Assembly (NCBI GenBank): GCA_046590585.1
Contig: JBKJVD010000090.1
Span: 1 to 61,470, forward strand
Direction: 5' to 3'
Length of the DNA stretch: 61,470 nucleotides
Origin: Thermoanaerobaculia bacterium
GTDB lineage: Bacteria; Acidobacteriota; Thermoanaerobaculia; Gp7-AA8
Made by a program: the position numbers and the translations under genes. Of the stretch, positions 49,293 through 49,738 are shown piece by piece. Numbering within the stretch: the stretch's first letter is position 1; each line of letters begins with the position of its first letter. The notes under the pieces were generated by a model that did not search any database, was not told the DNA's origin, and saw only the letters and a list, made by a program, of their open reading frames with translations.

Positions 49293-49424
49293 CGCCTGAT
49301 GTTAGCTCCCAGATCGCCAGCGTGTCACGGGGGGAAGGAACGGATTTCACGACGACGCGGCGAGTGGTCTTCGCCGGCACACTTGACATCCGCCCGATCG
49401 CGCGCTCATCATTCCCGCCGCCGA

Positions 49425-49493
49425 ATGAGAGTTCTCATCTCCACCTGTTGCATGTGTCGAAACTCACGAATGTGTCAGTCGCGAATGCGCTGA
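49425..49493 (+). CDS. Candidate leader peptide MRVLISTCCMCRNSRMCQSRMR (22 aa; 4 Cys, 4 Met)
   Basis: An ATG..TGA micro-ORF read directly from the sequence. It is the tail of track ORF 49140..49493. No obvious SD is present; it may be near-leaderless if the TTGACA promoter is real. Confidence 0.35.
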   Translation: MRVLISTCCMCRNSRMCQSRMR

Positions 49494-49653
49494 CGCGGGT
49501 GTAGCGGCACAACTTCCGACTTCACCCGCGGCACATGCCGAGGCGGTGGAGCCGGTCCCAGAACCAGATTTCCAATCCTCACCTGACGAACGAGATCCCG
49601 TGGCGATGCTTCGCCGCGCGTCAACGTCGTTTCTCGTGAGCCTTTTGAATCAG

Positions 49654-49689
49654 GCCCATCGCCCCGATCCCGGGGAGATGGGCTTTTTT
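49654..49689 (+). terminator. Intrinsic terminator/attenuator 50 nt upstream of metY
   Basis: GCCCATCGCCCCG-atcc-CGGGGAGATGGGC followed by TTTTTT. Confidence 0.8.
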
Positions 49690-49738
49690 CATTCAGGCGC
49701 GCTTCACCACACGAGAACGAACGAAAAGGAGAATCACC

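Follow-up and report, generated by a model that had tools for sequence, protein, structure and literature searches.

A candidate leader-peptide attenuator with methionine and cysteine codons in front of metY-metX-hom in a Thermoanaerobaculia bacterium

The divergent intergenic spacer of 446 nt at positions 49293-49738 of a 61,470-base stretch of Thermoanaerobaculia DNA (contig JBKJVD010000090.1; "the window" hereafter means this whole stretch) lies in front of the genes metY-metX-hom. Judging from its sequence and from related leaders, this region probably acts as a ribosome-mediated (leader-peptide) transcription attenuator that senses the supply of charged Met-tRNA and Cys-tRNA. The regulated operon, including the metY Shine-Dalgarno sequence, would span 49726-53268 on the forward strand. 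A short upstream open reading frame (uORF) with a strong codon bias, conservation of its frame, a promoter-like site, covariation in the terminator stem and complementarity between leader segments can all be read directly from the sequences, and are described in turn below.

The leader opens with a promoter-like site at 49383-49412 (+), in which the −35 box TTGACA (49383-49388) and the −10 box CATCAT (49407-49412) are 18 nt apart and give a sigma-70-like match at 10 of 12 positions. The −10 box ends 12 nt before the ATG of the uORF, and transcription is predicted to start ~4-7 nt before this ATG. The candidate leader-peptide uORF (49425-49493, +; ATG at 49425, stop codon TGA at 49491-49493) encodes MRVLISTCCMCRNSRMCQSRMR. 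As the earlier note on this sequence had described, 8 of its 22 codons specify Cys or Met (4 Cys and 4 Met, with the start counted). The seven internal regulatory codons are C8, C9, M10 and C11 (49446-49457), M16 and C17 (49470-49475) and M21 (49485-49487). Met and Cys together account for 2.06% of the residues in seven neighbouring ORFs, and the probability of at least 7 such codons among the 21 non-start codons is 1.4e-7. When all 61,470 bases were scanned in six frames, the uORF was the sole site with at least 6 Met/Cys codons in 10. The uORF has no Shine-Dalgarno sequence; metY, by contrast, is preceded by AAGGAG (49726-49731, +).

Sixteen leaders of the window's sublineage were recovered, one of which (L118) is truncated at its 5′ end. 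L001 and L002 came from genomes and L082 and L090 from a metagenome scan with the pattern GCGGGTGTAGC-N(10-30)-CACCCGCGGCA, while L108-L119 lie on contigs of close MetY homologues and were retrieved independently of the leader sequence. The pattern scan gave 27 matches. Apart from L082 and L090 (the latter identical to L093), which are real homologues, these were rejected as chance occurrences within coding regions. All relatives but the truncated L118, that is 15 leaders, follow a common plan. The promoter consists of CTTGACA, a 17- or 18-nt spacer of variable sequence and (C/G)ATCAT, and is followed after 11-13 nt by ATGAG; this promoter arrangement was retained in 16/16. Then come the uORF, ATGCGC-stop, CGCGGGTG (segment R2), CTCCACCCGCGGC (R3), GCGGTGGAG (R4), a spacer and a terminator with a T-run (R5 and R6), which lies 31-55 nt before metY in the relatives' leaders. 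Both ATGCGCTGACGCGGGTGTAGC and CCACCCGCGGCACA..GCCG..GCGGTGGAG are identical in nearly all of the 17 sequences, the window included.

The reading frame of the uORF is retained throughout this set. Its start, CCGA(T)ATGAG, and its stop, ATGCGCTGA/TAG, are conserved; the stop codon is TAG in L082, L111, L112 and L113, at the same codon position, and TGA in the others. The start-to-stop distance takes five values (63, 66, 69, 78 and 81 nt), all of them in frame. The peptides fall into a W-type, with MRVLISTCCMCRNSRMCQSRMR in the window, MRSLISIRCMCCSRTCQARMR in L002, MRSLISTCMCRCSRMCQRMR in L108 and MRSLISTCMCPCSRMCQRMR in L109, and a commoner C-type, with peptides ending in SMMCMGMCMCMR, SMCMCMCMCMR, SCMCICMCMR, SMCMCMCMRMC or TCMCMCMR. 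The N-terminal parts vary freely, and a Met/Cys run near the C-terminus is retained. Several observations thus point to a uORF that behaves as coding sequence, with the Met/Cys codons as the selected part. This comparison, together with comparable uORFs in many phyla (see below), bears out the suggestion of leader-peptide attenuation in the earlier note.

Some smaller regularities were seen within the two types. In W-type leaders the start codon lies within a small hairpin, AUGAG-N4-CUCAU (−4.2 kcal/mol; 49425-49438 in the window, and also in L002, L108 and L109), which is kept despite different loops (AGUU, AUCU, AUCC); C-type relatives do not have it. Another hairpin, GTGTCAG..CTGAC(GC) at 49472-49496 (+; −14.0 kcal/mol), encloses M21 and the stop codon and is likewise found only in the W-type (window, L002, L108 and L109). 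C-type peptides (L001, L082, L090, L110-L115, L117 and L119) share a middle part, R-(S/A)-R-A-A-(H/Q), encoded by ...CCCGCAGCCGTGCCGCAC... at about codons 8-13. Two stretches of these uORFs have complements in the leader: for CCCGC it is R2, and for GCACAC the beginning of the Met/Cys run. The middle part is probably conserved at the RNA level, as the R1 segment, and not at the peptide level.

The periodicity of these codons raises the question of whether the RNA itself, rather than a translating ribosome, is read. Bacillus TRAP binds spaced triplet repeats, and most relatives carry a run that resembles them, namely a six-base periodic repeat (AUG NNN) present 4-6 times. A TRAP-like RNA-binding protein activated by methionine or S-adenosylmethionine (SAM) could read such AUG-N3 repeats, with the open frame as a by-product, and at 62% G+C a chance open frame of 22-26 codons is not rare. 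However, the repeats are always in frame with the conserved ATG 11-13 nt past the −10 box and with the conserved stop beside R2. The stop survives a change from TGA to TAG, and all length changes are multiples of three. Moreover, W-type leaders have no periodic repeat yet retain the Met/Cys codons, and the Bacteroidota versions are poly-Cys without AUG repeats. A gene for such a binding protein is not evident beside the locus, although no dedicated search for one was run. We therefore give very little credence to this explanation.

An intrinsic terminator is located at 49653-49689 (+), inside the metY leader. It is composed of the R5 arm (G)GCCCATCGCCCCG (49653-49666), the loop ATCC, the R6 arm CGGGGAGATGGGC (49671-49683) and a T6 tract (49684-49689); the hairpin proper, which begins with GCCCATCGCCCCG at 49654-49666, occupies 49654-49683 and is followed by the T6. 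Folded alone, it has an energy of −26.7 kcal/mol. The stem contains one internal G/A mismatch, because of which a simple terminator scan missed it. The terminator ends 49 nt before the metY ATG, where the earlier note had counted 50; all the sequence features described there are present, some with coordinates off by one base. The distance from the uORF stop codon to the terminator is 160 nt.

Helices were evaluated in alignment A2, which holds the window and the 16 relatives, by comparing the percentage of paired cells with that obtained when the partner strand was slid. The outer stem of R5:R6 (49654-49660 with 49677-49683) was paired in 96.6% of cells, compared with 34-52% for the slid partner. 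Three of its pairs, with seven cells, showed compensatory changes, a level reached by none of 500 shuffles. The covariation that the earlier note had proposed looking for in related leaders is thus present in the terminator stem.

A conserved terminator could also be constitutive or leaky, for instance as insulation of metY or as a means of releasing a small RNA, with the uORF as a decaying remnant that no longer regulates. The Met/Cys codons of the window are fewer and more scattered than those of the relatives, the terminator is 160 nt away from the stop codon, and equilibrium folds always favour the terminator, all of which would fit a remnant. Nevertheless, L002, L108 and L109 keep the same subtype, with 6-7 internal Met/Cys codons in the same frame, and the W-type retains R4:R5 complementarity. 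In addition, a strong constitutive terminator before an essential biosynthetic operon would be costly. On these grounds we consider a non-regulating terminator improbable.

Between the start of the uORF and the terminator, the leader contains segments with alternative complementarity. R1, TCTCCACCTGTTGCATGTGT (49438-49457, +), is the uORF segment with the first Cys/Met cluster and is complementary to both R4 (−19.0 kcal/mol) and R2 (−14.5 kcal/mol). R2, CGCGGGTG (49494-49501, +), directly follows the stop codon and pairs with R3, CTTCACCCGCGGC (49520-49532, +), for which R2 and R4 are alternative partners. R4, GCCGAGGCGGTGGAGCC (49537-49553, +), comprises the core GGCGGTGG (49542-49549), a bulged A (49550) and GCC (49551-49553); its GCGGTGG is invariant in 17/17 sequences. 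We propose R4 as the antiterminator strand, with R3, R1 or R5 as partners. The geometry is such that codons C8-C11 lie within R1 and R2 starts immediately after the stop codon. Between R4 and the terminator lies a variable spacer with local hairpins (49554-49652, +), which measures 0-84 nt among the relatives (between segment cuts) and is not conserved in sequence beyond the nearest ones.

In alignment A2, R2:R3 (49494-49501 with 49523-49530) was paired in 91.9% of cells (39-63% when slid) and showed one compensatory change from G:C to A:U, in L118. R3:R4 (49520-49526 and 49530-49532 with 49537-49539 and 49545-49551) was paired in 95.9% (25-56% when slid), and its changes were wobbles only. 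R4:R5 (49542-49553 with 49653-49663, with one bulged A) was paired in 84.9% overall (35-59% when slid); its 9-bp core was almost fully paired in nearly all of the 17 sequences, and the changes were from G:C to G:U in six sequences and from U:A to U:G in one. The R1 pairing is preserved in L002 through a C-to-U wobble change, which lends it weak support since there are just three distinct W-type sequences. In the window, the R2:R3 hairpin has an energy of −22.1 kcal/mol, the R3:R4 hairpin −17.4 kcal/mol and the R1:R4 duplex −19.0 kcal/mol. The R4:R5 duplex, at −24.5 kcal/mol, is close to the terminator at −26.7 kcal/mol. The 357-nt leader folds with a z-score of −5.0 against dinucleotide shuffles, and R1:R4 is the minimum free energy (MFE) pairing of the full leader. 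In transcripts cut short of R6, R4 is the MFE partner of R5; this was seen for the window, L002, L001 and L082. The metY Shine-Dalgarno sequence at 49726-49731 is unpaired in the MFE fold.

A different antiterminator had been put forward in the earlier note, namely GGCGATG (49602-49608), pairing either in a local hairpin or with CATCGCC of the terminator's 5′ arm. Both pairings are indeed possible: the local hairpin (49602-49615) has an energy of −14.1 kcal/mol and the pairing with CATCGCC −14.7 kcal/mol. As a conserved switch, however, GGCGATG does not hold, and we rejected it as the antiterminator. It lies in the variable spacer, it is missing in L002, L108 and L109, which are otherwise the leaders closest to the window, and its pairing is weaker than the −24.5 kcal/mol of R4:R5. 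Judged by complementarity, the terminator's 5′ arm instead has a conserved partner in the invariant GGCGGTGG(A)GCC at 49542-49553.

The R2-R4 core (49494-49553) might alternatively be the aptamer of an undescribed riboswitch for SAM, S-adenosylhomocysteine (SAH) or methionine, with the uORF incidental or secondary. The sequence invariance of the core exceeds the need of plain helices, metY is a classic riboswitch target with SAM-I in front of it in Bacteroidota and Ignavibacteria relatives, and translation of the uORF is inferential. Scans with Rfam lent this no support. With Rfam 15, no family reached its gathering score anywhere in the window, and a permissive scan of 49250-49800 with E up to 10 returned only three unrelated chance matches, at E = 0.37 or worse. 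No covariance model of the SAM and SAH classes (SAM-I, II, III, IV, V, VI, SAM-I/IV, SAM/SAH and SAH) matched in the window, nor did the T-box leader (RF00230), with its Stem I specifier loop and T-box antiterminator. The weak resemblance to SAM-I mentioned in the earlier note was thus not supported by Infernal, in agreement with its remark that no known riboswitch class could be assigned. Among the loci of 20 relatives, Rfam recognised only SAM-I, in Bacteroidota and Ignavibacteria, and nothing over the Met/Cys leader; likewise, no Rfam match was obtained in 16 relatives (from Acidobacteriota, Gammaproteobacteria, Eisenbacteria and the actinobacterial type) for their leaders with a Met/Cys uORF.

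Other observations also argue against an aptamer. Pairings among the conserved segments exclude one another and do not build a compact junction or a pseudoknot. The frame of the Met/Cys uORF is retained despite changes in length, peptide and stop codon, and such a uORF recurs in phyla whose leaders have no R2-R4 core. Strong conservation of the core would be expected in an attenuator because each segment pairs with two partners and also has a coding role. Taken together, a riboswitch seems quite improbable.

A leader-peptide attenuator could work in this architecture as follows. Transcription would begin a few bases before the 22-codon uORF with its seven internal Met/Cys codons, and would produce six alternately complementary segments: R1 in the uORF, R2 after its stop, then R3, R4, R5 and R6, with R5:R6 and the U6 tract as the terminator. 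With an ample supply of Met and Cys, a translating ribosome would reach the uORF stop codon and depart, setting R1 free. In the window, R1:R4 would then enclose the R2:R3 hairpin, whereas in C-type relatives R1:R2 would form together with R3:R4. In this OFF state R4 would be held; therefore R5:R6 would form and transcription would end 49 nt before metY. Under a shortage of Met-tRNA or Cys-tRNA, it would stall at codons 8-11 and the stalled ribosome would mask R1. R2:R3 would hold R3, and the free R4 would capture R5 before R6 is made, so that the polymerase enters metY. Which of these pairings form, in what order, and in which direction the system responds are what we infer from the complementarity.

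Several points weigh against this attenuation model. R2:R3, R3:R4 and R4:R5 are near-invariant, and true covariation in them amounts to one compensatory pair plus wobbles. Because the segments hardly vary, the evidence consists of conserved complementarity and not of strong covariation, and their conservation could have a different cause. Translation of the uORF is putative; its 5′ untranslated region would be just ~4-7 nt long and has no Shine-Dalgarno sequence, so initiation would need a leaderless-like mode. The uORF of the window is also degenerate: its 7 Met/Cys codons are dispersed across 14 positions, in contrast to the tightly packed run of the relatives.

Nor did a clean switch emerge when equilibrium folds were computed with ribosome footprints. 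With ribosome masks on the full leader, the terminator was always favoured, and when the transcript was cut before R6, R4:R5 formed at every ribosome position. When it was cut after R4, the probability that R4 is unpaired rose only from 0.11 to ~0.4 for a stall at C8-C11 and did not change for one at M16/C17. The model consequently depends on co-transcriptional kinetics. Classical attenuators show the same behaviour at equilibrium, and for this reason the folds count neither for nor against the model.

To place the window's leader in a wider sample, 450 nt upstream of metY were analysed at 79 loci from many phyla, with the number of Met/Cys codons per 10 codons as the threshold. Small upstream ORFs with at least 5 Met/Cys codons per 10 were found at 33 of the 79 loci, in at least five phyla, compared with 1/79 on the reverse strand and 0.13% in dinucleotide shuffles. 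At least 6 per 10 were found at 25/79 loci, and both controls gave 0. Examples are MVMCMGMCMC (L007) and MCMDMCMCMPM (L015) in Acidobacteriota, MTMCMTMAMCMC (L024) in Eisenbacteria, ACMCMCMMM (L005) and CMMCMCMC (L020) in Gammaproteobacteria, MAMCLCCMMMCC (L046) in Ignavibacteria, CMCCCCACCC (L080) in Bacteroidota and TRMMCMA (L030) in an actinobacterial-type metagenome-assembled genome (MAG). ATG occupies every second codon, and the intervening codon is variable (C, G, D, T, A, V, S or I). This periodicity with a variable intervening codon fits selection on codons and hardly an RNA motif.

A terminator lies 3′ of the uORF in 28 of the 34 leaders with a Met/Cys-rich uORF that were examined, including the window. 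In the wider sample it is usually found 19-34 nt past the uORF stop, and in this compact form the 3′ part of the uORF, as the antiterminator strand, is complementary to the 5′ arm of the terminator. The pair covaries between lineages, being GCGGGT:ACCCGC in most and GCAGATC:GATCTGC in L038. The compact form has the classical compact attenuator design.

The compact terminator is near-identical across phyla, which is unusual for a terminator. A hairpin ACCCGC-NN-CGGC-NNN-GCCG-NN-GCGGGT with a T-run behind it, located ~60-140 nt before metY, was seen at L003, L005, L007, L010, L012, L015, L017, L020, L021, L023, L024, L027, L030, L041, L043 and L051. Its 2x2 internal loop is conserved as well; this loop frequently reads GA/AA or AA/GA and could form tandem G-A pairs. 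MetY is ~80% identical across the phyla that share this terminator, and the conservation of the terminator suggests either horizontal spread together with metY or a constraint from pairing with the antiterminator.

In Ignavibacteria, SAM-I (RF00162) is preceded by a Met/Cys uORF (MAMCLCCMMMCC...) that has a terminator of its own, and is followed by metY (L046 2579-2879; also L047-L049 and L072). In Bacteroidota, the poly-Cys uORF of L035 begins ~10 nt after the SAM-I aptamer (L035 2626-2860; also L061 and L080). In both arrangements, a leader peptide and a riboswitch in tandem seem to give metY two regulatory inputs.

Compared with the compact form, the window looks like a derived relay form. 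Local alignment matched the R2 region to the antiterminator strand of L007 (GCGGGTGTAGCGGCAC against GCGGGTGGAGGGGCAC), a score equalled by 15/500 shuffles. R3-R4 matched the terminator of the Thermoanaerobaculia MAG L043 (ACCCG---CGGCACATGCCGAGGCGG against ACCCGCGACGGCACA-GCCGAAGCGG), equalled by 3/500 shuffles. Tentatively, the ancestral terminator, corresponding to R3:R4, may have lost its U-tract in the window's sublineage, and termination may have passed to a further hairpin with a similar sequence (R5 about GCCCACCGCC, R6 about GGCGGTGGGC), coupled through R4:R5. Two points stand against this derivation: a global MAFFT alignment of relay and compact-class leaders gave no clean register, and the homology of R3:R4 to the ancestral terminator is based on short local alignments, which lend it modest support. 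Because MAFFT leaves the register unsettled, this step is tentative.

On balance, we lean somewhat towards a large, hitherto undescribed family of metY Met/Cys attenuators, with the window as one member, that would span at least five phyla (Acidobacteriota, Gammaproteobacteria, Eisenbacteria, Ignavibacteriota/Bacteroidota and actinobacterial-type MAGs) and be characterised by a near-leaderless (Met-Xaa)n/Cys uORF. In its relay form the ancestral terminator would have turned into an anti-antiterminator for a second, duplicated terminator, and the tandem with SAM-I would combine tRNA charging and SAM as inputs.

If this is true, a conserved Met/Cys leader present in several phyla would extend the oldest known mechanism of control at the RNA level to a further amino-acid specificity, and would explain metY regulation in phyla that have received little study, among them Acidobacteriota and Eisenbacteria. 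An MCMCMC-type uORF with a terminator would provide a simple annotation signature for intergenic regions that have no Rfam match. The relay form would be a natural example of attenuator growth through hairpin duplication. A Met/Cys leader of this kind also raises the question of how a run of AUG codons can sense elongator Met-tRNA without internal starts.

The genes of the operon were confirmed with NCBIfam: metY (49739-51052, +; ATG at 49739) with TIGR01326 at 706 bits, metX (51049-52107, +) with PRK00175 at 378 bits, and hom, the homoserine dehydrogenase gene (52135-53268, +), with homoserine dehydrogenase models. The match to the homoserine dehydrogenase model begins only at about residue 79 of the hom ORF, so the GTG start at 52135, taken from a mechanical ORF list, may be placed too far upstream. 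The nearest MetY proteins (85-93% identity) belong to Thermoanaerobaculia MAGs of the Acidobacteriota. On its other side, the spacer adjoins a divergent ORF of 270 aa without assignment (48480-49292, −), which has a signal-peptide-like N-terminus and no NCBIfam match. A weaker promoter-like site, GTGACA-18-TAACAT (49299-49328, −), faces this ORF.

Methionine biosynthesis is classic territory of SAM riboswitches, T-boxes and the repressors MetJ, MetR, SahR and McbR. According to the earlier note, textbooks do not describe leader-peptide attenuation for methionine genes, and the literature searched agrees, with partial precedents in PMC8079986, PMC8632094 and bioRxiv 10.1101/834739. Comparative studies of methionine regulation describe riboswitches, T-boxes and protein regulators, and no leader-peptide attenuation of metY (PMC4239095, PMC1262725, PMC2965389). 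We found no description of a Met/Cys leader before metY in the searchable full-text literature, which mostly does not cover subscription journals, so that a prior description is possible. The "metXZ element" of beta-proteobacteria (PMC4239095) was set aside as a different, non-coding motif.

The window shares with the classical attenuators of Proteobacteria (trpL, hisL, thrL, leuL, pheL and ilvL) the codons for the pathway product in a short leader ORF, overlapping alternative hairpins and an intrinsic terminator that precedes the operon's first structural gene. The logic would also be common to both, in that a stalled ribosome leads to an antiterminator and to readthrough. Unlike these operons, the window has Met/Cys regulatory codons, which we found described only for the candidate leaders discussed below, and neither for metY nor for the classical operons. 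Its host is of the Thermoanaerobaculia type within Acidobacteriota, and its uORF is probably near the transcription start and has no Shine-Dalgarno sequence. Six segments are alternately complementary and 160 nt separate stop and terminator, whereas classical attenuators usually have four segments. None of the Rfam leader models (Trp_leader, His_leader, Thr_leader and others) matched the window.

Closer in codon content are several Cys-rich leaders. The uORFC-8-2 before cysS in Rhodobacterales is a candidate ribosome-mediated attenuator that has conserved Cys codons (UGC/UGU) in a stem, with an intrinsic terminator behind it (Brewer et al. 2021, PMC8632094). In contrast to the window, it relies on a tandem pair of Cys codons without Met, precedes a tRNA synthetase gene, belongs to Alphaproteobacteria and has no sequence similarity. 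Mycobacterial polycysteine leaderless small ORFs act on translation (Canestrari et al., bioRxiv 10.1101/834739), and actinobacterial cys operons have Cys leader peptides without terminators (Seliverstov et al. 2005, PMC1262725). Like the candidate uORF of the window, these ORFs are Cys-rich, lie at the extreme 5′ end without a Shine-Dalgarno sequence, precede sulfur-metabolism genes and are associated with Cys-tRNA sensing. However, they hide a downstream Shine-Dalgarno sequence or have no recognisable terminator, whereas the terminator of the window is strong and conserved and its codons are mixed Met and Cys. The window also stands apart from the mycobacterial polycysteine class in that a terminator lies between the uORF and metY and the Shine-Dalgarno sequence is unpaired in the MFE fold.

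The nearest precedent that we found is the "metL" leader MSTTSDRTPATEATTTPGARCMCRRMCAF before metN in Streptomyces lividans TK24 (Droste et al. 2021, PMC8079986). Its C-terminal CMCRRMC resembles CCMCRNSRMC of the window, its transcript is leaderless and it precedes a methionine-metabolism gene. It was described in a single genome and for a transporter operon, without comparative or structural analysis, and its authors call the mode of termination "unclear". SAM-I (RF00162) controls the same gene, metY, through premature termination and is found in the Bacteroidota and Ignavibacteria relatives; it has no match in the window, and in the relatives that bear it the Cys/Met uORF is additional, in tandem with SAM-I. 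The window's leader is not categorically new, because ribosome-mediated attenuation is of a textbook kind. What sets it apart, besides the absence from Rfam, is the Met/Cys specificity, the spread across phyla and the proposed relay architecture.

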